Origin: a virus
Lineage: Duplodnaviria > Heunggongvirae > Uroviricota > Caudoviricetes > Schitoviridae
Strand: one strand, 5' to 3'
Length of the DNA stretch: 64,000 bases
IMG/VR virus record: IMGVR_UViG_2595698411_000001
Location: 37,241-101,240 of that record
Below the pieces are notes generated by a model. That model did not search any database. It was not told the DNA's origin and saw only the letters and a program-made list of their open reading frames with translations. A program made the position numbers and the translations under genes. Shown here one piece after another: positions 2,728-43,358 of this stretch (positions are counted from its first letter, which is position 1; each line of letters starts with the position of its first letter).

Positions 2728-2952
2728 ATGAAAGTTTTAGTAACACTGCTATCCCTAGCTCTGTTAGCGGCTTGCACTCCTCGTACTGGCCTGAATAAAG
2801 CCAAAGGAGAGTACCTGTGCCGTAACAACGGAGGAATATATTTCTTTTACAGCTTTAGCGAATACCCGGTTGTGTGTAACGACGGTACAGCATTTACCAT
2901 CAAGCAGCTAGAAACCATCATTATTAAAGATCCAGAGTATTTACCGGAGTAA
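2728..2952 (+). CDS. putative lipoprotein
   Basis: N-terminus MKVLVTLLSLALLAAC carries a lipobox LAAC; 74 aa. Confidence 0.5.
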   Translation: MKVLVTLLSLALLAACTPRTGLNKAKGEYLCRNNGGIYFFYSFSEYPVVCNDGTAFTIKQLETIIIKDPEYLPE

Positions 2953-2956
2953 AGCA

Positions 2957-3208
2957 ATGCTTAATTACGAAGCGAAAGAACTGATAGGCCAAACCGTTTA
3001 CCTTATCTCAGTTCAGTACATGGAAAACTACGGCAGTAGGTGGAAGTTCAAGCTGGGGGACACTCACGTTATCCCTGCAAGCGAAAAAACCCCAGAGACA
3101 ATGATAGCAGCCGTTGACTCTCTGGACTTGATTAACAACTCACAAGCGAGAGAAGTAATAATTTCAGTACAGTTTAAAGTACTGACAGCCGAAGACTGCG
3201 AATATTAA
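2957..3208 (+). CDS. hypothetical protein
   Basis: 83-aa ORF. Confidence 0.45.
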   Translation: MLNYEAKELIGQTVYLISVQYMENYGSRWKFKLGDTHVIPASEKTPETMIAAVDSLDLINNSQAREVIISVQFKVLTAEDCEY

Positions 3209-4301: not shown

Positions 4302-5132
4302 ATGCTAGCAGAATGTAACGCAGTATTCTTATTCATCGCAGAACTAACAGGCAGCTTTCAGCCAGGTTCAGGTACAGAACAAGACAAGATTGAGTGCGGT
4401 AAGCAAGACTACATCAGAAACTTCCAGCTAGATCTCAACCTTCATGACGAAGACGACAGAAAAGATATGCACGAAAATGTGTGGCTATCAAGACTGTACC
4501 GAGAACTAGACACTTATTTCAACGTGCCTTCAGACAAAACCGCTAGAGCCTTGGCAGTAGACCCTGAGAGCAATCGCTACAGGTACTCAACGTTCCAGTG
4601 GCAAGTACCTATTGAACTAGATGCAAGTGCATCGATGCTTCAGTACGAAGGCTTACTTACTGGCGACAAACGACTGTTAGAAATGACAAACGTTATCGGT
4701 GACACCCTACAAGACCCTTGGAAACTAGAGGGAATGTCACGCCAAATGCTAAAGAAAGCGGCAACTCCAATGCTATACGGTTCTAGCCAAGCATGTCATG
4801 AGTTGTGGCAAGATAACAATATCCCTTATACGACTGATGACATAGCTTTGTACAATAAAGAAATGGCAGAAGGGCCCTTTGGTGTAGCAAACTTACTTAA
4901 AGAGTTCATCATCAATAACGCGGCGCCTAAGTCAGAAATGGAAGTTCATATCTGGGGAGAGAAGTTCAAGATATCGTGTAACCGTTTCCGTAACGTAGGT
5001 GAACAGACTAAAGCGTACAAGATATGGGATACGTTGGATGAGCGTTACAACATCATCCTACATACTGACACTAAGCGTGTGCCTGACCTAGAGCAGTTCA
5101 AACGGTACTTTATGACGTTACTCATTTTCTGA
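4302..5132 (+). CDS. T7-like RNA polymerase II catalytic piece (motifs A and B); 5' exon or N-terminal segment
   Basis: Motif A QVPIELDASASMLQYEGLL matches T7 PLAFDGSCSGIQHFSAML. Motif B RQMLKKAATPMLYGSS is an exact R-x3-K-x7-YG. The ORF reads into the intervening element and stops at 5133. Confidence 0.75.
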   Translation: MLAECNAVFLFIAELTGSFQPGSGTEQDKIECGKQDYIRNFQLDLNLHDEDDRKDMHENVWLSRLYRELDTYFNVPSDKTARALAVDPESNRYRYSTFQWQVPIELDASASMLQYEGLLTGDKRLLEMTNVIGDTLQDPWKLEGMSRQMLKKAATPMLYGSSQACHELWQDNNIPYTTDDIALYNKEMAEGPFGVANLLKEFIINNAAPKSEMEVHIWGEKFKISCNRFRNVGEQTKAYKIWDTLDERYNIILHTDTKRVPDLEQFKRYFMTLLIF

Positions 5133-6285
5133 TTGTGGGTGAGTATAAACATGGTGAATTCGGTGGACGCTAAGGGAGAAATCCTATGCCAATACCGAGC
5201 CAAGCTTAGCTAGGAATAGCTTTGAAGGTGTAGAGACTAGTACGAGAGGCCAGAACGGTCAATAATGTACGTAGGATACTCAAGTGAGATCCGAAGCGCC
5301 ATGCCCTACTTAGGTAGGTGAAGATATAGTCCCATACTCCGTGGAAATGCGGAGACTAGTGTTGATTATCTACATAGTAGAGTCTATAATATGTATTGTT
5401 ATGTATAATAAGGATTCTAATATGAATAGATATTACGTGTACTGGTATAGGCTGATTGAGTTTAATAATCCACATTGTGAAGGATACATAGGTATAACAA
5501 ACAATATGGAGCGTAGACATAAAGAACATTGTAGAAGTAAAGGTACTCACTTTGCTAATGCAATAAGTAAGTATGGGTTAGACAAAATCAGTTATGAGGT
5601 ACTGCATGAAACTGACAGCAGACAGGAAGCTTTAGACCTAGAAGCTTATTACCGTCCAGACGTAGGATTAGGATGGAATACTGCAAAAGGCGGTGAAGAT
5701 ACCTTAGCGTCAGTAAAATGTAGGAAAGTAAAGCTATACCATAAAGACAATCCTGAAAAACTTAGATGTTTTGATTCTATAGATCAAGCTTCTAAAGAAC
5801 TAGGGATTACCGCTTCAAGAATAGCTCAAGCATTATGCCGTAATACTAAGTATTATGGGTTTGATGGGTGGGCTGTATTGATAGATGAGAGTACAGAAAG
5901 AGGTAAGACTCTAAGTATTCAGGAAGTAATATCTATCAGAGTAAGTGGCGCTAAACGTAATAAACCAAGCCATTTTAAAGGTATGACTAATCGCTGGTCC
6001 GAAGAGGATAAAAAGCGAATTAGTGATCAACATAGAGGTAAGGTTATCTCAGATGAGCAAAAAGAAGTAGTAAGAAACAAGAATAGAGCTGCCCATAGTT
6101 CTTGTAAATCTATAACTTTAGTTCATCAGGATAATCCTGAAGTTGAGCATACTTACCATAGCATAGCAGAAGCCTCTAGGGAATTAAGTATACCTTTGAG
6201 TAGACTTAAGTCTAAAGCACAGAGAAAGCTGAATGTGTATGGTAAAGATGGCTGGAAGATAATTAAACTAGGTGCAGAGTAACGT
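5133..6285 (+). mobile_element. intervening element in the RNAPII gene: putative group I intron carrying a GIY-YIG homing endonuclease ORF
   Basis: It separates the motif-B piece from the motif-C piece of one T7-like RNAP. About 290 nt of relatively GC-rich, non-coding-looking sequence (5133-5421) precedes the homing-endonuclease ORF. That ORF is AT-rich with atypical codon usage. The downstream RNAP piece has no ATG. Confidence 0.45.
5422..6282 (+). CDS. GIY-YIG homing endonuclease with NUMOD-like repeats
   Basis: MNRYYVYWYRLIEFNNPHCEGYIGITNNMERRHKEH is a GIY-x10-YIG...R..H..E motif. Repeated Lys/Arg-rich modules follow. An AAGGAT ribosome-binding site precedes ATG 5422. An upstream in-frame ATG at 5341 is also possible. 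Confidence 0.75.
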   Translation: MNRYYVYWYRLIEFNNPHCEGYIGITNNMERRHKEHCRSKGTHFANAISKYGLDKISYEVLHETDSRQEALDLEAYYRPDVGLGWNTAKGGEDTLASVKCRKVKLYHKDNPEKLRCFDSIDQASKELGITASRIAQALCRNTKYYGFDGWAVLIDESTERGKTLSIQEVISIRVSGAKRNKPSHFKGMTNRWSEEDKKRISDQHRGKVISDEQKEVVRNKNRAAHSSCKSITLVHQDNPEVEHTYHSIAEASRELSIPLSRLKSKAQRKLNVYGKDGWKIIKLGAE

Positions 6286-6595
6286 CTGCATTAAGGTAAA
6301 GCACAACCTAGATAGCCAAGTAGCAGATACTGTAATCGGCAAAGTGTACAACAAGTACGGTTGGGGTATCCCTATCCATGATGCGTTTATCATTAGCCCT
6401 GCAGCAGCAGCTGACGCTCGTAAGTGGTATGCAGAAGAATTGACCAAGATCTACGAAGATCGACAGCTAATTCTAAACAACTACTTCAAGAGTATCGGTA
6501 TCACTAGCGCAGCTCAGCAACAGTGGAAAGATCTAGTAAGCAAGATCCACCCGCTTGAAGGCGACATCAACGTAAACCACATGGCACTTAAGTAA
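6272..6595 (+). CDS. T7-like RNA polymerase II C-terminal piece (motif C, catalytic HD); 3' exon or separate subunit
   Basis: KVYNKYGWGIPIHDAFIISP aligns to T7 HEKYGIESFALIHDSFGT (motif C). About 70 aa follow to the C-terminus, as in T7. The listed start is GTG and there is no in-frame ATG, so the true 5' boundary is probably just after the homing-endonuclease stop (6283-6290). Confidence 0.7.
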   Translation: MQSNVCIKVKHNLDSQVADTVIGKVYNKYGWGIPIHDAFIISPAAAADARKWYAEELTKIYEDRQLILNNYFKSIGITSAAQQQWKDLVSKIHPLEGDINVNHMALK

Positions 6596-16225: not shown

Positions 16226-16301
16226 GCCCCTATAGCTCAGCGTGTAGAGCAGACGACTCATAATCGTTAGGTCACTGGTTCAAATCCGGTTAGGGGCACC
16301 A
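16226..16301 (+). tRNA. tRNA-Met(CAU): tRNA-Met (anticodon CAU; could be initiator, elongator or lysidine-type Ile)
   Basis: Hand-folded cloverleaf. Acceptor GCCCCTA/TAGGGGC, D-arm GCTC-AGCGTGTA-GAGC, anticodon arm GACGA-CTCATAA-TCGTT with anticodon CAT, T-arm ACTGG-TTCAAAT-CCGGT, discriminator A, and an encoded CCA. Confidence 0.85.
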
Positions 16302-28991: not shown

Positions 28992-29249
28992 ATGAAAAAA
29001 CGACTAGCGCTTGCAACAGCTGCATTGCTGTTTGCATCAACCGCTCTTGCGACCGAAAAACCGGTACGGCACTATGAAGTAGATGCTTGGGGTTTTGACC
29101 CTGACATTTACGAATTTACCCCAATCGGCCATAACCACATGACTTGCCTGATTTTAGTATCAGGCGGTGACACTTCAGCAGGCATTACGTGCTTCCCTAA
29201 AGACCGTGTACCTAAAGTCAAAGTTGAAGAGGTAAAAAATGAAAGCTGA
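28992..29249 (+). CDS. secreted small protein
   Basis: MKKRLALATAALLFASTALA signal peptide. Confidence 0.5.
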   Translation: MKKRLALATAALLFASTALATEKPVRHYEVDAWGFDPDIYEFTPIGHNHMTCLILVSGGDTSAGITCFPKDRVPKVKVEEVKNES

Positions 29250-29775
29250 ACTAGTGCTGCACAGCAATGACGACCTCCTTTGTGTAAACGCTGCTCGTGT
29301 TTCAATGGACAAAGAGTCAAAACTATTTACTTTCCGTAAAGATAAACCAAAAGGCTCAGATGAAGGTCTGGTACATTATCTAGCGGACCATCGCCATTGG
29401 ACACCTTTCAGCCATGCGCGTTTTACAATCGAAGCTAACGACGTATTTATTAACTTACTGAACGTAAACCCAGAAGATATCGCTTCTGCAGTGTGGAGAA
29501 CTGATCCTCTAAAAGGTAGTTTTAAATTCCGTACATCGTTGTTTGGTTGGGCAAACCTGATTAAAAAAGGTTTTGTGTTCGATCATTACGTTGGTGCAGT
29601 AGTAAATGTACTTAAACAGCATGTACCGCACTCTCTTAAAGCACTACTGCCAGAGATCGGTGACAACGTTAAATCGCGGTTCCCAGTATGGGAAACTGAA
29701 GACGAAACAGATCCTGCGTTTATTGACGTAACAATGCGCGAAACTATTCCTATTTTTATCGCACGTCAACGGTAA
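29239..29775 (+). CDS. thyX: flavin-dependent thymidylate synthase ThyX, N-terminal part (5' exon) with an in-frame ~100-aa insertion
   Basis: VNAARVSMDK...DEGLVHYLADHRHWTPFSHARFTIEA aligns to ThyX ...AARVS...HRVGNIFRHSSTLEHLYYNFEI and T. maritima HETPFEHIVFTFHV. The C-terminal IPIFIARQR aligns to T. maritima APIFVARQW. The ORF stops where the RHR motif should follow. Confidence 0.65.
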   Translation: MKAELVLHSNDDLLCVNAARVSMDKESKLFTFRKDKPKGSDEGLVHYLADHRHWTPFSHARFTIEANDVFINLLNVNPEDIASAVWRTDPLKGSFKFRTSLFGWANLIKKGFVFDHYVGAVVNVLKQHVPHSLKALLPEIGDNVKSRFPVWETEDETDPAFIDVTMRETIPIFIARQR

Positions 29776-29841
29776 ACTACTGCTATTTGTCGTTAGCTAT
29801 GCTATGCTCATATATCCAGCAACAAACAAAGAAAAAACAGT

Positions 29842-30507
29842 ATGTTGAAAGATAGAGCCGGCGATCAAGTTACCCGTGTATGTGATGACTGTGGTGATGA
29901 AAAACGAGTCAGTTATTGGAACGTCTACAAGAAAGATGCCCACCGTTGTTATCGGTGCAATAACAAACTGACCAACTTGGGAAAAACGCCCTGGAATAAA
30001 GGGCACAAGCAACAACCCAAGAATGTTGGAAATATCTATACCCACTCAGACGGCTACCCGATGGTGTGGGTAGGTAAGACCAACACAAACCATGGATATA
30101 TGCCTGTTCACAGATTGGTAATGAGCGACCTTAATGGACGCTTGGTTACCAAAGAAGAAAAGGTACATCACGTAAACGGAGACAAAGAGGATTTCAGGCC
30201 TGTAAACCTGTTCCTCTGTAACAATATGTCCCACCACCGAAAAGTACATGCACAGCTTGAAACGCTGTCTATGTCTTTAGTGAAAATGGGGCTTATTGAG
30301 TTTGATCACGCTAAAGGCGAGTACAGCTTAAGCCGCCCTATGGAGAAATTCATAGAGGAAAAACTGGGTGAATTGCTGGAAACCCCTAACGAGAAAGACG
30401 AGGGCAATCAGCAGCCAAGCTCTGCAGAACTTGCAGAGAAGGTTCAACGACTATTCCGTGAGGAAGTACACCAGAAGTCTGGTGGAAGCGCCCAGCCCCT
30501 GCCGTAA
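29842..30507 (+). CDS. HNH homing endonuclease
   Basis: VHHVNGDKEDFRPVNLFLCNNMSHHRKVH is an HNH motif. The N-terminus has Zn-finger-like CDDCGD...CYRCNNK. Confidence 0.7.
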   Translation: MLKDRAGDQVTRVCDDCGDEKRVSYWNVYKKDAHRCYRCNNKLTNLGKTPWNKGHKQQPKNVGNIYTHSDGYPMVWVGKTNTNHGYMPVHRLVMSDLNGRLVTKEEKVHHVNGDKEDFRPVNLFLCNNMSHHRKVHAQLETLSMSLVKMGLIEFDHAKGEYSLSRPMEKFIEEKLGELLETPNEKDEGNQQPSSAELAEKVQRLFREEVHQKSGGSAQPLP

Positions 30508-30571
30508 GTAGGGTGATGATATAGTCTCTTCTGCATGGAAACATGCAGCAGTTCATAGTTTAGGAGACTGG

Positions 30572-31039
30572 ATGTGGTACAAAATCTACAGACACACAAG
30601 TCCTAGTGGTAAATCATATATAGGGATTACTTCTGAGGATACATATACAAGGTTCAGGAAACACTTACGTAAGGCTAGATTTGGATCTACAACCAATTTC
30701 CATAAAGCAATACGTAAGTACGGTGAAGATTGCTGGCAGTCAGAAATACTGGACGCCTTCTATACTGAGGATAAGAAAGAAGCATACGAAAAAGAGCAAT
30801 CTTGGATTGATTCTGAACAACCTGAGTATAATATGGATTGTGGTTTTGGGTGGAATATTACAGACAGGCGTGGTGACAAGAACCCGATGTATGGGAAATT
30901 GTCAGGAAACGCACACGGGGTCAGCATCAAAGGTGAAATTTTCTTATCCCTCACCTTAGCTGCTGAGCACTTTTCCGTGAATCGAGGAACAATCAGCAGG
31001 TGGATTAAGTCCAGAGAAGACTGTTTTAAACTAAACTAA
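30572..31039 (+). CDS. GIY-YIG homing endonuclease
   Basis: MWYKIYRHTSPSGKSYIGITSEDTYTRFRKHLRKAR is a GIY-YIG motif. AGGAGA ribosome-binding site upstream. Confidence 0.7.
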   Translation: MWYKIYRHTSPSGKSYIGITSEDTYTRFRKHLRKARFGSTTNFHKAIRKYGEDCWQSEILDAFYTEDKKEAYEKEQSWIDSEQPEYNMDCGFGWNITDRRGDKNPMYGKLSGNAHGVSIKGEIFLSLTLAAEHFSVNRGTISRWIKSREDCFKLN

Positions 31040-31504
31040 GTGAACGGGCGGGGAATAACGTACCCCGTCGAAGGTAAAGTTAAACACATGATTGGTACCA
31101 CCTACAATGAGGTGTCACGCAGATACGTAGATGATACACCTGAGTTCTACCATATTGACGAGTGGCGCAGTCGTCCTGACGGTTCGATCAAACAAGGTAG
31201 TGGCGGTATTCACCCTGAAAGCGCAGCAATGTCTCTGTTTGCTAGAGGCCGTGTCACAGCAATGGCTGAAGACTACGATGAAAACATTGAAGCTGGTTTT
31301 GCGCCAGAACAAGTACGCAGTTTGTTGCCACAGAACATGCTCACTAGTTACTACGTCACTGCGTCATTAAACGCGTGGAAACGTGCTTATGACCAGCGTA
31401 TCGACGGCCATGCCCAAAAAGAAATTAACGACCTGGCGCTACAGTGGGTAACAATACTAAACGACTGCCCACACGCCCAAATCTGGAAAGAAATGTTTAA
31501 GTAA
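31040..31504 (+). CDS. thyX: ThyX C-terminal part (3' exon)
   Basis: ...KHMIGTTYNEVSRRY aligns to ThyX RHRIASYNELSGRY. ARSLLPQNMLTSYYVTASLNAWKRAYDQRIDGHAQKEINDLA aligns to the conserved ThyX C-terminal region A.P..Y.T...Y..N.R.L.NF..LR....AQ.EI. Listed GTG start with no ATG. Confidence 0.65.
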   Translation: MNGRGITYPVEGKVKHMIGTTYNEVSRRYVDDTPEFYHIDEWRSRPDGSIKQGSGGIHPESAAMSLFARGRVTAMAEDYDENIEAGFAPEQVRSLLPQNMLTSYYVTASLNAWKRAYDQRIDGHAQKEINDLALQWVTILNDCPHAQIWKEMFK

Positions 31505-31621
31505 CAACTTTCTGGGCGATGACACTAGCCAAGGTCGCAAATTGTTAAGCGGCCTAAAGACCCCTCTGCTCGGTCGTGTCACCCTTTAACTCCAACAACA
31601 CTAACCTCAAGAGTAACCTTT

Positions 31622-35352: not shown

Positions 35353-37614
35353 ATGAGCATGTTGACCCAGACTAAAGAACTTCTTACTAAAGAAGGCGCT
35401 TTTTCTGGTGAGCAGAACAAACACCTTCAAAGTGTTATTGAAGCTATCAGTTTTCCTACCATCGACCCAAAGATGAAAGCCGTTATTGCAGTTTCTCAAA
35501 TTACGTCTTTCGCTAGCCAGTTTCGTAGAAACATCAAGTTGTGGGATGACCATACAGAAGTTCCTATTAATGCGATATCGTTTGTGATCACGGGCTCCGG
35601 TGCAGGTAAAGATTCTTCAGTTAAAGCCGCCAGAAAGTGCTTTACAAGCGGGTATAAAGTCTTAGAAGGCAAAGCAATGGAAGCTGCTGTAAAAGAAGCT
35701 ATTGCCCAAGCCAAAGAAGAGGGTTTACCTAACCCGCAAGACGAAGCGATTTACAAACCGTACCTTAAGCCAGTGCCTCCAGTAGACATTATGCCTACTA
35801 CAGGTCCTGGCCTTATCCAGCACATCAACGACATTGGCGACGTAGGTGTAGGCGCTGGCATCATGTACTCTGGCGAGTTTTCAGATGAACTGGCGTACAA
35901 CCAAGATATGGTCGAAAACATTAAGACCTTATCCGAAATTTATGACACTGGCGACAAAGAGGTAAAATATACCAAGTCGGCAGAGTTCCGCTCAAAAGCA
36001 ATTGCTGGCCAGCCAGTATCTGCCCTTTTCGTAGGTTCGCCAGGCCATATCCTTTACGATGAAGGTACCAAGAAAAAATTCCATATCGCTTTTATGTCAA
36101 AACTAGCTCGTCGTAGCTGGTTCTGTTACGCAGCTGACAAAATTGAAGAACAGGTTTTTGACACGCTTGAAGAATTTTGGGAGTACGAAGAAGAGATTGA
36201 AACTAGGTCTAAGCACGCTCGCCTTGCTATGGACACTCTAGTTAAAGAAATCGCTAAATACCATGCAAAGCACATCGGTAAAGAGATCGCTGTATCTAAA
36301 AGCGTTGAGCGCCTTTATAAGACATACAAGCGCTATAACAACGACCTAGCTGACTTGCTGCCAAACCAAGACTCAACGTATGCGCTTATTCGCCGCCACT
36401 TGCAGTGGAAAGCTCTTAAACTGGCAGGTGCGTTTGCTATCATGGAAAAAGAAGATGAAGTGACCCCAGAGCACTACATTGAAGCTATCCGTTTTTGCGA
36501 AATACTAGACAAAGACATGGAAGAGTTCGAGCGCGACCTAAACAAAGCGCCTCACGAATTGCTCGTAGATTTCTTCCATACTAAGACACTAGTTGACGGT
36601 AAATCAGAAATCAGTACTCATGACCTCAAAAAACAAGGTTTCATGAATAACGTTTCTAACACCAAGCTAAAAGAAATGGTAGCTCTGTGCGCAGGTTACG
36701 ACCAAAACTCAGTGTACTCTGTCATAAACGACGGTTCTGCTATTCACTACGAACCTATTGTTAAAACAGACGTTATTAACGTTACGTACAAAGAGATCGA
36801 TACGTCTCAACTTAACGCTGCAGTCGAATCAGGTGACTTTAATGCTATCCGTCAGGCTAAGCATAATATCGCCTCTACGACAAACTACGGCTTTGAAGCA
36901 GCAGACACTTCGTTTGACGAACTGCCTCAATTATTGGCAGGCGACTACGCGTTTTCTCCGTACCGTTTTAAAGACGGTGTACGCAGAAAAGAAAACTTAG
37001 AGTCTGGTACTAAATGGGTTGTTCTAGACATAGACGACTCTCCGCTTTCAGCAGAAGAAGCGCATTTTATGTTAGGTGACATTAATCACCACATAGCGCT
37101 AACAAGCGATAAAGACAACAACTTCAAGTTCCGTGTCCTTCTTGAGCTAGACTCTGAAGTTTATTTGGACCCAGCCGCGTGGAAGCATTTCTACCTCAAG
37201 ATTGCAGATGATCTAGGTCTAAGAGCCGATCCGTTGCCTCAGTCTCAGATCTTCTACTCTTACGCAGGTAGAGACGTTTACAGCAACACCGAGTCAAGCC
37301 CTCTACCAACTAGGGACTACTTGATGTACGCAAAAGACATGGCTACTGACAAAGAGACTGCCGGCCGTGTTATGACGAACGCACAACGCCGAGCCCAGCT
37401 TAACGATCCTACAACTACTTTCGAGTACGCGTTTGAGGCTAAGTTTGGTGAAGGTTCTCGTTCCATGTACCGCATGATGCGTCATGCTCAAGACTTAGGT
37501 GCAGACCTCGATGAAGTTCTTCAGTTACTTGAAGACGTTAACGACTACTGGGAGTCACCCATGCCAGAAGAACGCCTTGAAAAACTTCGTGATCAAGGTA
37601 GGCGCTTATTTTAA
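35353..37614 (+). CDS. large replication-associated protein (N-terminal P-loop-like segment; possible primase/helicase)
   Basis: 753 aa. ISFVITGSGAGKDSS is P-loop-like. The C-terminal region has acidic VVLDIDDSP-type motifs. The assignment is weak. Confidence 0.35.
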   Translation: MSMLTQTKELLTKEGAFSGEQNKHLQSVIEAISFPTIDPKMKAVIAVSQITSFASQFRRNIKLWDDHTEVPINAISFVITGSGAGKDSSVKAARKCFTSGYKVLEGKAMEAAVKEAIAQAKEEGLPNPQDEAIYKPYLKPVPPVDIMPTTGPGLIQHINDIGDVGVGAGIMYSGEFSDELAYNQDMVENIKTLSEIYDTGDKEVKYTKSAEFRSKAIAGQPVSALFVGSPGHILYDEGTKKKFHIAFMSKLARRSWFCYAADKIEEQVFDTLEEFWEYEEEIETRSKHARLAMDTLVKEIAKYHAKHIGKEIAVSKSVERLYKTYKRYNNDLADLLPNQDSTYALIRRHLQWKALKLAGAFAIMEKEDEVTPEHYIEAIRFCEILDKDMEEFERDLNKAPHELLVDFFHTKTLVDGKSEISTHDLKKQGFMNNVSNTKLKEMVALCAGYDQNSVYSVINDGSAIHYEPIVKTDVINVTYKEIDTSQLNAAVESGDFNAIRQAKHNIASTTNYGFEAADTSFDELPQLLAGDYAFSPYRFKDGVRRKENLESGTKWVVLDIDDSPLSAEEAHFMLGDINHHIALTSDKDNNFKFRVLLELDSEVYLDPAAWKHFYLKIADDLGLRADPLPQSQIFYSYAGRDVYSNTESSPLPTRDYLMYAKDMATDKETAGRVMTNAQRRAQLNDPTTTFEYAFEAKFGEGSRSMYRMMRHAQDLGADLDEVLQLLEDVNDYWESPMPEERLEKLRDQGRRLF

Positions 37615-40046: not shown

Positions 40047-40883
40047 ATGGCCCGAATACTGTTTATAAGGAACTTTATGCTTAAAGATTATTTTTCATAC
40101 AACGACGGAAAAGATGTTACCAACAGCGCTTTTCGTATCAGCGCTTCAAAAGTAAGCGACTTTTTTGATCGTACATCGGCTTGGTATCACGAGCATTTGC
40201 TCGGAGAAGGTGGATTTCAAGGCAGTACTGCTAGTGAACTAGGTACTGTAGTCCACGCCGGTTTAGAGATGCAAACTCTTGAAGGTGTTGTTCATCACGA
40301 CGCTATCGAAGAGTATGTTATGAGCATCAAAAACGATGAAGTAGACAAACAAGAGATCTTGGATGCCTACCCTCCTATGTTAGCGGCAGGCCTAGAGTAT
40401 CTAGAGCGTAATCCGCAAGAAATAGTAGAAGAGTTCGTCTTTCACGAAATCTTGCCAGGAATCGGTGCAGGTGGCTCTATAGATGCCCGCAGACCTCGTA
40501 TTATTACTGACTGGAAAACTACTTCAGCCAAAACTGCGCCTACTAAATTTAGTCGCGCTTATTGGTTCCAGCAAATGACTTATGCGTGGGTCTTAAAGCA
40601 AAAAGGTGTTAATATAGAGTACCTGAAATTGGTGTACATCACCAAAGCTGACATTAACCGCGTCAGCGAAAAAACAGGCAAACCTCTTAAAGATTACCCA
40701 TCTGTCGTCACTGAGGTTATCGAAGAAGTTACAGAAGAAAAACTAGAGCTGATCGGTTCTTGTTTGAAGCTTATCGCTGAATCTGTACAGCTTTGGACAG
40801 ACCGTCCAGAACTTCGTCACATCTTGGCTCAAGACATGCGACTTCGCCCTAAACCAAAACCAATCACATTCAATAAGGAGTAG
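40047..40883 (+). CDS. PD-(D/E)xK RecB/Cas4-family nuclease
   Basis: GGSIDARRPRIITDWKTTS...YWFQQMTYAWVL contains the D..DxK and QxxxY motifs. Confidence 0.6.
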   Translation: MARILFIRNFMLKDYFSYNDGKDVTNSAFRISASKVSDFFDRTSAWYHEHLLGEGGFQGSTASELGTVVHAGLEMQTLEGVVHHDAIEEYVMSIKNDEVDKQEILDAYPPMLAAGLEYLERNPQEIVEEFVFHEILPGIGAGGSIDARRPRIITDWKTTSAKTAPTKFSRAYWFQQMTYAWVLKQKGVNIEYLKLVYITKADINRVSEKTGKPLKDYPSVVTEVIEEVTEEKLELIGSCLKLIAESVQLWTDRPELRHILAQDMRLRPKPKPITFNKE

Positions 40884-40887
40884 GACA

Positions 40888-41349
40888 TTGGCTGTAAAAA
40901 TTCTTATCTCAGCAGTAGCTAATGCAGGTAAAACTACGCTTACTAAAGAGCTAGAAAACTCATTAGTTATCAGTCACGACGGTAAAAAATATCCGTTTCC
41001 TGTACCACACGTAATGGTACCCAGTTTCGATTCTGCAGAAGAATTAGTGAACATTACTATCGAAAAAATCGAAGCGTACAACAAAAAGTTTGATGCGTAC
41101 CCAGACACAATTGTCTTTGACTCTGTGTCTAAAATTTTCGATACCATTCACACAAACTGTAACGAAAAACACACCGGTTTCAAAATCTATAGCGAACTAG
41201 ATAAAGAAATCACTGCATTCACCAGCTTCATTGAAAACTCTTTAATAGCTAGTGGCATGAACGTGGTGCTTATCTCTCACGCTATTTACGACGCCGACAC
41301 CGCTAAATACAACCTGGTCGGTAAAGGTCGAATGGGCCTTGCTGCATAG
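40888..41349 (+). CDS. P-loop ATPase (Sak4/RecA-like recombination ATPase)
   Basis: Walker A ISAVANAGKTTLTKEL and Walker-B-like TIVFDSVS. It sits next to the nuclease and the SSB-like gene. Confidence 0.5.
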   Translation: MAVKILISAVANAGKTTLTKELENSLVISHDGKKYPFPVPHVMVPSFDSAEELVNITIEKIEAYNKKFDAYPDTIVFDSVSKIFDTIHTNCNEKHTGFKIYSELDKEITAFTSFIENSLIASGMNVVLISHAIYDADTAKYNLVGKGRMGLAA

Positions 41350-41462
41350 TGATGTGCAGTTAGTACGGTGACTCGTACAACACTCCTCTAATTGACTGGG
41401 ACCCCCTTAGAGCATGTAACACTCCCTGCAACAGTAATGTATGCAGTACAGTAAAAGAGTAC

Positions 41463-41663
41463 ATGATTGGGCAATCAGCAGCCAAGCATCCTTACGGGAT
41501 GAAGGTTCAACGACTAGTGCATTGCACGTACACTCAAGTGAGTGGAAATGGGGAGCAGTCGGTATTTGCTAAACGAGGTGGTTTATGGTACTCTGTTTCT
41601 TATAAACAGAAAGAGATACGTTATGTACCATTACACGTACCTAATAAAAAGCAAAACAAGTAA
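41463..41663 (+). CDS. small ORF upstream of the homing endonuclease; carries copy 1 of the duplicated FAKRGG segment
   Basis: ATG preceded by AAAGAG. Encodes ...SVFAKRGGLW. Overlaps the homing-endonuclease start by 40 nt. Confidence 0.4.
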   Translation: MIGQSAAKHPYGMKVQRLVHCTYTQVSGNGEQSVFAKRGGLWYSVSYKQKEIRYVPLHVPNKKQNK

Positions 41664-42291
41664 AATGAAATATATAGGAGTTCGTTCCTGCGAATGTACA
41701 CCTGACAGTGATGATTACTGGAGTAGTTCAAGACATCTACCAAAGAGTGTCAAAACAACCCATAAACGTCGAGTACTGAAGGTGCATAATTCTAGAAAAG
41801 AGGCAGTAGAGCATGAGATACTTCTGCATCATAGATATGATGTAGCTAAGAATCCTGAGTTTTACAACAGAGCTAAACAAACTACTACAAGTTACGACAC
41901 TTCAGGGGTTCCAAACCCACATAGTGAAGAGACATGTAGGAAGTTAAGTGAAGTTAACAAAGGAAAGAAACGAACACCTGAGATGGTAGAGGCTATGCGT
42001 CAGAGGATGCTAGGTACTACGCAATCAGAAGAGACTTGCAAGAAGAGAGGCGAAGCAATTCGCAAGAATGGTTCTAATAAAGGAACTAGAAACTCTCAAT
42101 TCAGGCCTTGGTATATTTCAACTGAAACGTTTACGTATATTTTCAACGATGTAAGCAAGAATGAGCAATCAATTCTAGACGGGCATTATAAAAAATACTA
42201 CGCAGACATTCAGAAAAAATTTAATAAAGCAGGCACACTTACTACCAGAAAGTATGGGAAAGTAGTGGCTATGGGCTTTATTCCGACTTGA
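41623..42291 (+). CDS. GIY-YIG homing endonuclease with NUMOD3-like repeats
   Basis: MYHYTYLIKSKTSKMKYIGVRS is a GIY-YIG motif. HSEETCRKLSEVNKGKKRT and QSEETCKKRGEAIRKNGSNKG are NUMOD3-like. The start is trimmed to the ATG preceded by AAGAGA. Confidence 0.7.
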   Translation: MYHYTYLIKSKTSKMKYIGVRSCECTPDSDDYWSSSRHLPKSVKTTHKRRVLKVHNSRKEAVEHEILLHHRYDVAKNPEFYNRAKQTTTSYDTSGVPNPHSEETCRKLSEVNKGKKRTPEMVEAMRQRMLGTTQSEETCKKRGEAIRKNGSNKGTRNSQFRPWYISTETFTYIFNDVSKNEQSILDGHYKKYYADIQKKFNKAGTLTTRKYGKVVAMGFIPT

Positions 42292-42368
42292 AGATATAGT
42301 CTAATCTACACAGAGATGTGTAGCAGTACGAAAGTACGGGCTAGAAGTAACGACTCTAGCTGAATATA

Positions 42369-42593
42369 TTGTCATTCGCAAAACGTGGCGGCTTCTTGGC
42401 AGAAGTTGACGAAGCGTTATTCTTAGAACTGAAAAACAACAAACGTATTGTTCATTCTAAGTCTACTAAGTTCCCAGCGCGTTCTCTGCAAGCAGACATT
42501 CCTGACAGTGTGCCGGTAGACGATTTTAACCTTCAGCAATATATGGATCAGATCAAAGGCGTTTCTGCCGAAGTTGATTCATTCCAGCTGTAA
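42369..42593 (+). CDS. small ORF downstream of the homing endonuclease; carries copy 2 of the duplicated FAKRGG segment (TTG start)
   Basis: No ATG. Begins (TTG)SFAKRGGFL, which matches copy 1 apart from synonymous changes. Confidence 0.4.
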   Translation: MSFAKRGGFLAEVDEALFLELKNNKRIVHSKSTKFPARSLQADIPDSVPVDDFNLQQYMDQIKGVSAEVDSFQL

Positions 42594-42647
42594 CTAAACC
42601 CTAACCTTTAAAGAAGGTGTAATTCTGCACCTTCTATTTCTACTTCA

Positions 42648-43358
42648 TTGAGGATTCAACAAATGAAATTAACAGTATCAAAAAAACAAGACGCAATTAA
42701 AGACACCGGTGATGGTGGTCTAATAAACGCTTCAGGCATCTACGACGTTAACCTGAACTATGTACAACTAGCCGAAAGCAAAGGCGGTGCCCTACAAATC
42801 AACTTCAACGTTACTAATAACGGTATGGAGCAAACTATTTGGGGTCCTTACCTAACTAGCAAAGCCGGCGACGTTAACGAGATTACTCAAAATCTTCTTA
42901 ACCGTCTGTGCATCATCGCAGGCATGGAAGATGGCCAAGAGATCGAAACCGAAACAGTTGAAAACCCAGTCGGTAAAGACCAAAAAATGATGGAAATGGA
43001 AGTAATTCCAGAACTATCAGACGTTCCAGTTAAGATTCGTATTCAGATGGAATACTCTCTGTACAACGATGAAATCCAAGAGCGTAAAGTTGTTAAAGCG
43101 TTCTACCGCGAAGACGGCGCTACTGCGGCTGAAGCAGAGTCTGGTGAAAACATCGGTCGTCGCCTAGCATTAGACGAAGAGAAATACGCGTCTAACGTCA
43201 CGTACAAAGACGGTCTTACCGAAGAAGACGTTAATGCTTGGAAAGCCGAGCGTGCTAACGCACGTAGTGCAGCAAAAGGCAGCGATTCAGCGCCTAAAGC
43301 CTCTAAAGGGGCTGCAGCTAAAACTAAAGCTAAACGCCCTCTATTTGGTCAAAAATAA
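42648..43358 (+). CDS. putative single-stranded DNA-binding protein
   Basis: 236 aa with an acidic core and a C-terminal Ala/Lys-rich tail. Positioned after the nuclease and ATPase. The assignment is weak. Confidence 0.35.
   Translation: MRIQQMKLTVSKKQDAIKDTGDGGLINASGIYDVNLNYVQLAESKGGALQINFNVTNNGMEQTIWGPYLTSKAGDVNEITQNLLNRLCIIAGMEDGQEIETETVENPVGKDQKMMEMEVIPELSDVPVKIRIQMEYSLYNDEIQERKVVKAFYREDGATAAEAESGENIGRRLALDEEKYASNVTYKDGLTEEDVNAWKAERANARSAAKGSDSAPKASKGAAAKTKAKRPLFGQK

Follow-up and report, generated by a model that had tools for sequence, protein, structure and literature searches.

A sak4-like recombination gene of a schitovirus is predicted to be split by a mobile group I intron, and the endonuclease gene within this intron is preceded by a non-coding sequence that resembles the start of the second exon. 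The DNA analyzed, called the window in the following, is a stretch of 64,000 nucleotides (nt) of the virus record IMGVR_UViG_2595698411_000001 (Schitoviridae, record positions 37,241 to 101,240). Coordinates refer to the window unless stated otherwise, and related loci are denoted by L numbers. Positions 40800-42700 are 100% identical to positions 78040-79940 of NC_021532, the genome of Alteromonas phage vB_AmaP_AD45-P1. An initial annotation of this region had pointed to two similar 27-nt segments, 41562-41588 (copy 1) and 42372-42398 (copy 2), located on both sides of an open reading frame (ORF) for a GIY-YIG endonuclease, and both segments exist as described. We interpret copy 2 as exon sequence and copy 1 as a probable mimic of the homing site, which would most likely serve the endonuclease as its operator.

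A Predicted Group I Intron in a Sak4-Like ATPase Gene

The ORF upstream of the two copies (40888-41349) encodes an ATPase of the AAA_24/Sak4 type and covers only positions 2-136 of the 195 positions of the profile. Once 40888-41328 is joined to 42372-42593, the AAA_24 match runs unbroken across the junction (residues 2-179, profile positions 2-187), and both exons together yield a product of 220 amino acids that is colinear with uninterrupted homologs. More than 100 metagenomic proteins, each uninterrupted and exactly 220 amino acids long, share 66-96% identity with it over the full length; uninterrupted homologs also occur in two cultured Alteromonas phages. The closest relative, L005, is 96% identical and intron-less, with a syntenic neighborhood composed of a PD-(D/E)XK nuclease, sak4, SSB, a Gad2-like gene, and UvrD. 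Its junction DNA reads GTC GGT AAA GGC|TCG TTT GCA AAG CGT GGC GGC TTC and shows neither an insertion nor a duplication. Alignment with L005 and the two cultured phages places the insertion point at 41328|42372, where the predicted spliced junction is GGTAAAGGT|TCATTCGCA.

The same intron was identified in 16 related loci. A U precedes the 5' splice site and a G terminates the intron in 17/17 introns, and the spliced frames of all 17 loci are open and contain the Sak4 motif. Two partial matches to the Rfam model RF00028, 41338-41613 and effectively 42283-42323, reach 35.4 and 34.3 bits (E 1e-6 and 2e-6); both fall below the gathering score of 50 bits because the ORF of 669 nt splits the model. 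ORF-less introns exceed this threshold, as seen for L021 (97.1 bits) and for a second intron of the window at 30284-30548 (105.7 bits). Between the two strands of P3, the ribozyme core takes in P4-P6, the 5' strand of P7 (GACUA, 41512-41516), and two hairpins that lie between P7 and the 3' strand of P3. In the 3' part of the ribozyme, Rfam aligns UGAAGAUAUAGUCUAAUCU to the 3' end of the model.

Covariation supports this fold. The RNAalifold consensus of 16 ORF-less constructs comprises 39 pairs, 27 of which show compensatory double changes, including some in the long-range P3, P6/P6a, and hairpins; P9 and the last hairpin covary as well. P7 (GACUA/UAGUC) is invariant across lineages and hence uninformative in this respect. 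For P8, the paired strands change together (GTCGG/CCGAC, GTTGG/CCAAC, CAAGTTA/TAACTTG, ATATTAC/GTAATAT, ATACGG/CCGTAT, and CCCTAGTTG/CAACTAGG). Likewise, the P10 guide pairs with exon 2 as CGAATGG with TCATTCG in the window and L025, as CAAATGG with TCATTTG in L023, L024, and L027, and as CAAAACT with AGTTTTG in L029. Equivalents of P1 exist in relatives with other exon ends, e.g., GGUGGGU/GCUCACC in L030.

Judged by these sequence features, the interruption is a group I intron, predicted to be self-splicing, and the gene is not broken. That a Sak4-like AAA_24 recombination ATPase of 220 amino acids is split by such an intron is, as far as sequence comparison can tell, close to certain. The initial annotation was right in outline, as a gene is interrupted by a GIY-YIG mobile element, but it had assumed a small gene, the first half of which was to start with MIGQ. 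The respective ORF (41463-41663) overlies P4-P8 of the ribozyme, and its start codon and frame are lost in relatives. The downstream ORF indeed starts at TTG, but this TTG constitutes the last three nt of the intron. The features of the locus are summarized in Table 1.

The RefSeq record of AD45-P1 lists four separate coding sequences at the locus and no intron. Here, gp077 (41463-41663) is the ribozyme core annotated as a protein of 66 amino acids, gp076 (41782-42291) is the endonuclease gene with its start placed internally, which truncates the 5' end, and gp075 (42369-42593) is exon 2 called from the TTG inside the intron, a hypothetical protein of 74 amino acids. Four RefSeq 'genes' (a truncated Sak4, two hypothetical proteins, and a truncated endonuclease) would therefore turn into one spliced sak4, one ribozyme, and one endonuclease gene. 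PHROG 26880 matches gp077 and PHROG 22761 matches gp075, both over the full length; these two families apparently derive from the ribozyme core and exon 2, respectively, and may be annotation artefacts.

Table 1. Features of the interrupted sak4-like locus in window coordinates.
Feature	Position	Strand	Description and basis
Exon 1 of the Sak4-like AAA_24 ATPase gene	40888..41328	+	147 codons, 3' end GGT AAA GGT; Pfam AAA_24, colinearity with homologs of 220 amino acids
Probable homing and co-conversion tract	41296..42645	+	no difference between AD45-P1 and AD45-P3; flanks diverged
P1	41324..41340	+	exon AAGGU (41324-41328) with internal guide GCCUU (41336-41340); U.G pair at the splice site; sequence reading
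Group I intron (predicted)	41329..42371	+	1043 nt; 5' splice site after U41328, terminal G42371; unannotated in NC_021532
P10 guide CGAAUGG	41329..41335	+	pairs with exon 2 UCAUUCG (42372-42378); covariation
Ribozyme core	41383..41555	+	from P3 5' strand CUCCUC (41383-41388) to P3 3' strand GGGGAG (41550-41555); RNAalifold, Rfam alignment
P8 5' strand CAGUCGG	41556..41562	+	pairs with 42283-42290 (CCGACUUG); covariation across lineages
Homing-site mimic (copy 1)	41562..41588	+	core 41563-41584; non-coding imitation of exon 2 +1..+27; putative endonuclease operator
Weak extended -10-like element TGGTACTCT	41586..41594	+	overlaps the 3' end of copy 1; putative endonuclease promoter
Shine-Dalgarno-like AAAGAG	41610..41615	+	7 nt 5' of the endonuclease ATG; AAGGA/GGAG at the same place in relatives
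Homing endonuclease gene	41623..42291	+	222 amino acids; N-terminal GIY-YIG domain, NUMOD3-type linker, C-terminal domain; in the P8 loop
3' ribozyme part	42283..42371	+	P8 3' strand, J8/7 and P7 3' strand (AAGAUAUAGUC, 42291-42301), P9 (42306-42323), further hairpin, terminal G
Exon 2 of the Sak4-like gene	42372..42593	+	73 codons and stop; first 27 nt are copy 2, the true target sequence

Conservation of Copy 1 Upstream of the Endonuclease Gene

Copy 1 reads GTA TTT GCT AAA CGA GGT GGT TTA TGG (VFAKRGGLW) and copy 2 reads TCA TTC GCA AAA CGT GGC GGC TTC TTG (SFAKRGGFL). Among the seven internal codons, AAA is identical and the remaining six differ exclusively at third positions, as initially described; five of these differences are synonymous, but tta/ttc exchanges L for F. 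The outer codons differ at positions 1 and 2 (first codon) and at position 2 (last codon). The assumption that both copies flank the insertion did not hold: only copy 2 is exon sequence, and copy 1 starts 234 nt 3' of the 5' splice site, inside the intron. Its first base, the last one of the P8 5' strand, marks the 5' edge of the P8 loop; its 3' end lies 35 nt upstream of the endonuclease ATG. Nor is there a partial target duplication, since the boundaries of the insertion (41328|41329 and 42371|42372) carry no repeat and empty alleles contain the sequence once, with neither loss nor gain.

Positions 41563-41584 agree with exon 2 at 16/21 positions. The raw identity of the entire copies (18/27) is unexceptional, being reached by 209/500 dinucleotide shuffles of the intron in comparison to the whole gene and by 30/500 in comparison to the junction with 30 nt on either side; it was dropped as evidence. 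The in-frame peptide match FAKRGG is unusual, as 11/2000 shuffles equal it in comparison to the entire protein, even when no position at the junction is required, and the back-translated pattern TTYGCNAARCGNGGNGGNTT has exactly 2 matches in 64 kb, compared to 0.01 expected.

Relatives read in the same register yield VFAKRSGLC (L022), VFAKRGGL* (L023), VFAK*RGL* (L025), and VFAKRGGFW (L027). Copy 1 is non-coding, because L023 and L025 carry in-frame stops. The same stops speak against the earlier proposal that recoding keeps both halves translatable. In terms of mean pairwise identity across five lineages of the window's clade, copy 1 nevertheless reaches 0.81 (core 0.85) and the 5' part of the ribozyme 0.86, compared to a neutral level of 0.55 found both for the spacer between copy 1 and the ATG and for third codon positions of the endonuclease gene. 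By pseudo-codon position, copy 1 identity amounts to 0.89, 0.96, and 0.58 at positions 1, 2, and 3, respectively; 7/9 columns at pseudo-position 3 are variable versus 3/18 at positions 1 and 2 (Fisher p = 0.0036). Purifying selection on both copies, as suggested by the initial annotation, is borne out insofar as the same non-wobble positions are constrained, but in copy 1 it does not act on a coding sequence. On the clade alignment, only roughly one in four wobble bases of copy 1 is the same as in the present host exon. Therefore, recent copying or gene conversion from the host does not account for the retention of positions 1 and 2.

We also considered whether copy 1 together with the 5' heptamer GTCGGTA, identical to exon 1 positions 41317-41323, imitates the whole junction with 8 nt deleted. 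This was rejected, as the bases in question belong to P8, where they make up the 5' strand and change in concert with the 3' strand in relatives; the match to exon 1 is probably a structural coincidence. Local RNA structure of the segment preceding the ORF is not significant (z = -0.71). The only helix in this fold pairs 41584-41591 (AUGGUAC; 3' end of the mimic and -10-like element) with 41625-41631 (GUACCAU; first endonuclease codons). L023 shows a compensatory change at this helix (UGAUAC/GUAUCA), other lineages being ambiguous. The helix resembles the hairpin that delays translation of I-TevI.

Match to the Host Junction across Lineages and Insertion Sites

The introns occupy four or five positions within approximately 32 nt of one Sak4 motif. 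The window, L022-L029, and L035 share the site GKG|SFAK (+0), while L032, L040, L037, L114, and L118 carry the insertion at +18, L038 at +19, L030 at +22, and L115 and L116 at about +32. Since the +0 and +18 sites each follow AAAGGT, the same P1 pairing (AAGGU/GCCUU) is reused. A free-standing relative of the endonuclease is found in L117 (IMGVR_UViG_3300033153_001791), where a gene at 574-1224 (40% identity) lies directly downstream of an uninterrupted sak4 (6-515) and is preceded by TTAAGGTAAACGGTGCTATAAT, with a TGCTATAAT element. By analogy, this arrangement may represent the kind of state proposed as precursor of mobile introns. L021 (IMGVR_UViG_3300033068_001142, a contig of 205 kb) contains an ORF-less group I intron at 2779-3012, in a sak4 homolog near residue 98. 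Thus, sak4 hosts introns at a second, unrelated site.

All lineages were compared by one pre-set scheme, a local alignment of the 75 nt upstream of the endonuclease ATG against positions -45..+75 of the intron-less junction, assessed by 1000 dinucleotide shuffles. Individually, 9/17 loci are significant (p <= 0.04), with the following counts per 1000 shuffles: window 32, L023 20, L027 2, L037 27, L032 5, L038 2, L030 11, L116 21, and L118 39. For 13 lineages, the comparison of the pre-ORF segment with its own junction gives a combined Fisher p = 3.9e-6. Cognate junctions outscore non-cognate ones (21.1 vs 17.0; 12/20,000 permutations); the lineages form a small and related sample, in which the permutation accounts for common descent of the junctions but covers phylogenetic structure only in part. 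Mismatches in the aligned columns are enriched at third codon positions (43/117 vs 25/114 and 21/119; p = 0.002).

Examples from other insertion sites are L037, where TACAAAAAGGAGGGTT corresponds to TACAAAAAGGTGGATT and the match spans the insertion site (junction TACAAAAAGG|TGGATT), L038 with TTCCTATTTGTTGTAGACGATGCTAT versus exon TTCCTCTCAGTAGTTGACGAATCTAT, and L118 with TATGCTACGTGCAACGAAGCTAT versus TATGCTACAGTAAATGAAGCAAT. A by-eye alignment for L030 was discarded because the formal alignment put the match in exon 1.

The Endonuclease and Its Probable Mobility

A GIY-YIG catalytic domain was identified in the ORF between the two copies, for which a GIY-YIG fold is predicted; the closest solved fold is that of I-TevI. 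The structure model consists of a confident N-terminal domain (1-90), a helical linker of low confidence, and a confident C-terminal domain (160-222), and a NUMOD3 motif occurs in 12/17 family members. At 42280-42301, the P8 3' strand and the beginning of J8/7 double as the last codons and the stop of the gene (ATT CCG ACT TGA). The conserved C-terminus GFIPT* is encoded by the ribozyme core, and the sequence is therefore under a double constraint. A protein identical to the product of 41623-42291 (P0121) is filed in NCBI under the bacterium Pseudorhizobium pelagicum on a contig of 102 kb, roughly as large as the phage genome itself, which suggests a phage contig within a bacterial assembly.

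Relatives of the endonuclease (81% to 32% identity) reside within sak4 in almost all cases. The intron is distributed in a patchy manner among close relatives, i.e., its presence is polymorphic. A comparison of AD45-P1 with AD45-P3 reveals 33 differences in 40742-41295 and none in 41296-42645, with differences resuming from 42646. The identical tract takes in 33 nt at the 3' end of exon 1, the entire intron and exon 2, and another 52 nt downstream. Homing with co-conversion of adjoining exon sequence would leave such a pattern, and we consider it the probable origin. The boundary of the tract hints at a cleavage site within about 33 nt upstream of the insertion site; I-TevI cleaves 23-25 nt upstream of its insertion site (PMC2988022). 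An alignment of the junctions contained no CNNNG cleavage motif upstream of the insertion that is common to all hosts.

Copy 1 as a Putative Operator

In the proposed mechanism, the intron (41329-42371) would splice out and join LVGKG to SFAKRGGFLAEV, resulting in the normal protein of 220 amino acids. By analogy to I-TevI, whose type it shares, the endonuclease would bind intron-less sak4 alleles at the conserved stretch that codes for FAKRGG and cleave them nearby, whereupon repair would copy the intron into the allele. A carrier would be protected, as the intron separates the binding region from the cutting region. Immunity to re-cleavage, for which recoding of the copies had been suggested earlier, would be explained more simply by this splitting of the homing site. 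Within the intron, the DNA-binding domain of the endonuclease would occupy copy 1 without efficient cutting, block transcription of its own gene, and limit its own level.

The codon-like pattern of a non-coding sequence would arise because the enzyme reads the non-wobble positions of its coding target. Having evolved to read those positions of the target that cannot change, the enzyme would constrain the operator at the same positions and leave position 3 free. An operator on which such an enzyme imposes the sole constraint is expected to retain positions 1 and 2 while position 3 drifts, which matches the observation. On these grounds, copy 1 is probably a homing-site mimic and most likely the operator of the endonuclease.

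A promoter may be located at its 3' end. Positional equivalents of the form TGnTAnnnT are TGGTACTCT in the window, TGTTACAAT in L022, and TGGTATGAT in L027. A perfect TATAAT, which abuts the mimic or lies within it, is found 25-36 nt upstream of the ATG in 7/13 lineages, three of them with TG extension.

Several observations weigh against a regulatory role of copy 1. The -10-like element of the window itself is poor (TGGTACTCT), and a consensus scan for two-hexamer promoters found none upstream of its endonuclease gene, where the promoter consensus of the phage may differ; the promoter link for AD45-P1 itself is weak. The significance of the mimic per locus is modest, as in the window with 32/1000, and 8/17 loci fail to reach significance on their own, among them L025, L115, and the free-standing L117 (572/1000). 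In L030 the best match lies in exon 1, and the extent of the mimic varies between lineages. The C-terminal domain of the endonuclease has no match to I-TevI's DNA-binding domain in fold searches. Finally, the scheme detects no mimic for the intron endonuclease of Pseudomonas phage YH6 (401/1000) or for the one in the window's own RNA-polymerase intron (428/1000). With these two negatives, an extension of the mimic rule to other intron endonucleases was dropped, and we claim it for the sak4-associated family only.

The main alternative is that copy 1 is a scar without a present role, left by the arrival of the endonuclease cassette as in the model of Loizos et al. (1994), or a fossil of another sak4 allele. 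Similarity between ORF flanks and exon junctions was first read in this way. Furthermore, copy 1 is closer to other sak4 alleles (L006 type, TTT GCA AAA CGT GGT GGT TT) than to the present host, it is degenerate in L025, and the free-standing relative in L117 makes cassette movement plausible. However, a scar is expected to decay evenly, whereas copy 1 is conserved like the ribozyme (0.81-0.85 vs 0.55), concentrates its changes at pseudo-third positions, and tracks host junctions at different insertion sites. The low wobble agreement with the host leaves recent copying unable to account for the kept positions. We therefore regard a purely inert scar as unlikely; an origin as scar and a present use as operator are compatible.

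A translated copy 1 would account for codon-like periodicity in both divergence and conservation, either as part of a short upstream ORF, such as 41463-41663 in the window, which spans it, or through an alternative 3' splice acceptor that joins exon 1 to VFAKRGG and gives a variant Sak4 C-terminus; the product would contain GKGVFAKRGGLW. G41561 precedes copy 1 as an acceptor would require, and GUAUUUG pairs with the guide CGAAUGG at 6/7 positions, including two G.U pairs. Against translation, L025 (VFAK*) and L023 have in-frame stops inside the mimic or directly behind it, and start and length of the ORF are not conserved. Against the acceptor, G41561 resides in the P8 helix and the 3' strands of P8 and P7 required for catalysis lie about 700 nt downstream, which would make such a use structurally implausible; moreover, where introns are inserted at other sites, P8 and the mimic are not neighbors. 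The candidate P10 pairing, with guide complementarity kept in the window's clade but not in L029, was rejected accordingly. We consider either form of translation very improbable.

Chance resemblance could be invoked because the identity of 18/27 is within the range of shuffled introns compared to the whole gene and because the copies were found by eye in 64 kb. It is effectively refuted by the six-residue in-frame match exactly at the start of exon 2, by the excess of TTYGCNAARCGNGGNGGNTT matches and the conservation of the segment in relatives, and by host-specific matches recurring in independent lineages. A model in which a small gene (MIGQ...FAKRGG + FLAEVDEA...) was broken by a free-standing endonuclease gene and part of the target was duplicated and recoded against re-cleavage would fit the two copies, which are in frame and lie to both sides of the endonuclease ORF. 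It has precedents in phage genes split in this way, e.g., by mobE in Aeh1 nrdA (PMC2988022). The model is refuted, as its upstream 'half' is the ribozyme core, which has no homologs within Sak4 proteins, as the uninterrupted homologs correspond to 40888-41328 and 42372-42593 joined, no segment being duplicated, and as intron signatures exist at both ends.

Returning to copy 1 as operator, we tentatively suggest that it is a working one and thereby a readout of the DNA specificity of the endonuclease, with codon periodicity and co-evolution with the host gene across insertion positions, possibly also in the free-standing relative. If this is true, recognition sites of such endonucleases could be predicted from sequence alone by alignment of pre-ORF segments and junctions. 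The family, with its free-standing, ORF-less-intron, and intron-borne states, would then form a natural series on the assembly of mobile introns. The repeated shifts of insertion sites inside one conserved motif, together with the free-standing relative, bear on the origins of mobile introns.

Other Introns and Features of the Window

The second group I intron mentioned above (30284-30548, record positions 67524-67788) scores above the Rfam threshold. It lies in a region, approximately 29240-31510, where the thymidylate synthase gene thyX is split in the annotation into gp091 and gp088; one ORF for an HNH endonuclease and one of the GIY-YIG type lie between these halves. This thyX insertion may be a twin or a compound one.

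A third group I intron (5100-5354, 55.7 bits) splits a T7-like/N4 gp16-like RNA polymerase gene with exons at approximately 4302-5126 and 6296-6595 (splice sites approximate), the second of which contains PIHDAF. A GIY-YIG ORF (5422-6282) follows the ribozyme core, and TATAAT elements precede this ORF. A related ribozyme core, 87% identical to that of the window over about 90 nt, is present in Pseudomonas phage YH6 (L162, NC_027388 9247-11488), where the intron splits an N4 gp16-like RNA polymerase gene annotated as two coding sequences. The endonuclease ORF of the YH6 intron is located in the 3' (P9) region, and its P8 is a plain hairpin. In addition, the window contains a tRNA gene at 16226-16298 (Rfam, 69.2 bits).

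Comparison with Known Systems

The locus adds an example, so far unannotated, to a known type of system that combines a mobile group I intron, a GIY-YIG endonuclease, and a homing-site-like operator, the last being putative in sak4. As with the T4 td intron and I-TevI, the intron belongs to group I and interrupts a conserved phage gene, the GIY-YIG ORF resides in a peripheral loop, and a homing-site-like sequence (about 70-75% identical) lies inside the intron, just upstream of the ORF and beside a promoter-like element. To our knowledge, autorepression by an intron endonuclease has been shown experimentally for I-TevI only.

According to the summaries of Edgell et al. 2004 in PMC2988022 and PMC3943268, I-TevI binds its operator as tightly as the homing site, cleaves it approximately 100-fold less, and represses its own transcription. 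Unlike in T4, the host gene is sak4 rather than td, the ORF resides in P8 rather than P6, and the mimic covers exon 2 positions +2..+23 instead of being centred on the insertion site. Furthermore, the promoter is weak or uncertain, I-TevI's zinc finger and DNA-binding domain find no match, and the sak4 system is known from its sequence. The comparison of lineages adds to the T4 system that mimic and host target covary and that the mimic changes with codon periodicity. We did not find such comparative support for selection on a mimic reported in the literature searched; it constitutes comparative evidence, from a second and diverse family, that a homing-site mimic is under selection and follows its host target. 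Homing endonucleases are known to accept wobble-position substitutions in their coding targets; for I-AniI, tolerated positions correlate with wobble positions of the host gene (PMC3943268).

Homing-site-like sequences also accompany the intron-encoded ORFs of I-TevII (nrdD/sunY intron) and I-TevIII (nrdB intron), where they are read as scars or operators; these endonucleases belong to other or mixed families, unlike that of sak4. In sunY, the similarity is split across both flanks of the ORF, whereas in the sak4 intron it lies wholly upstream. Loizos, Tillier and Belfort in 1994 reportedly deduced their model of endonuclease-ORF invasion for sunY/I-TevII from the similarity between intron flanks and exon junction (listed in PMC2988022).

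In collaborative homing, free-standing endonucleases target intron insertion sites (Bonocora & Shub 2009; Zeng et al. 2009, as cited in PMC2988022). The free-standing form in L117, the ORF-less form in L021, and the intron-borne forms are the states predicted by that model, although among the loci examined no ORF-less intron at the window's site has a neighboring free-standing endonuclease. Finally, mobE in nrdA of Aeromonas phage Aeh1 is a case of a gene split by a free-standing homing endonuclease (PMC2988022). There, as in sak4, the public annotation calls separate ORFs around the endonuclease gene; in contrast to the two polypeptides of nrdA, the ribozyme in sak4 would restore one continuous mRNA.

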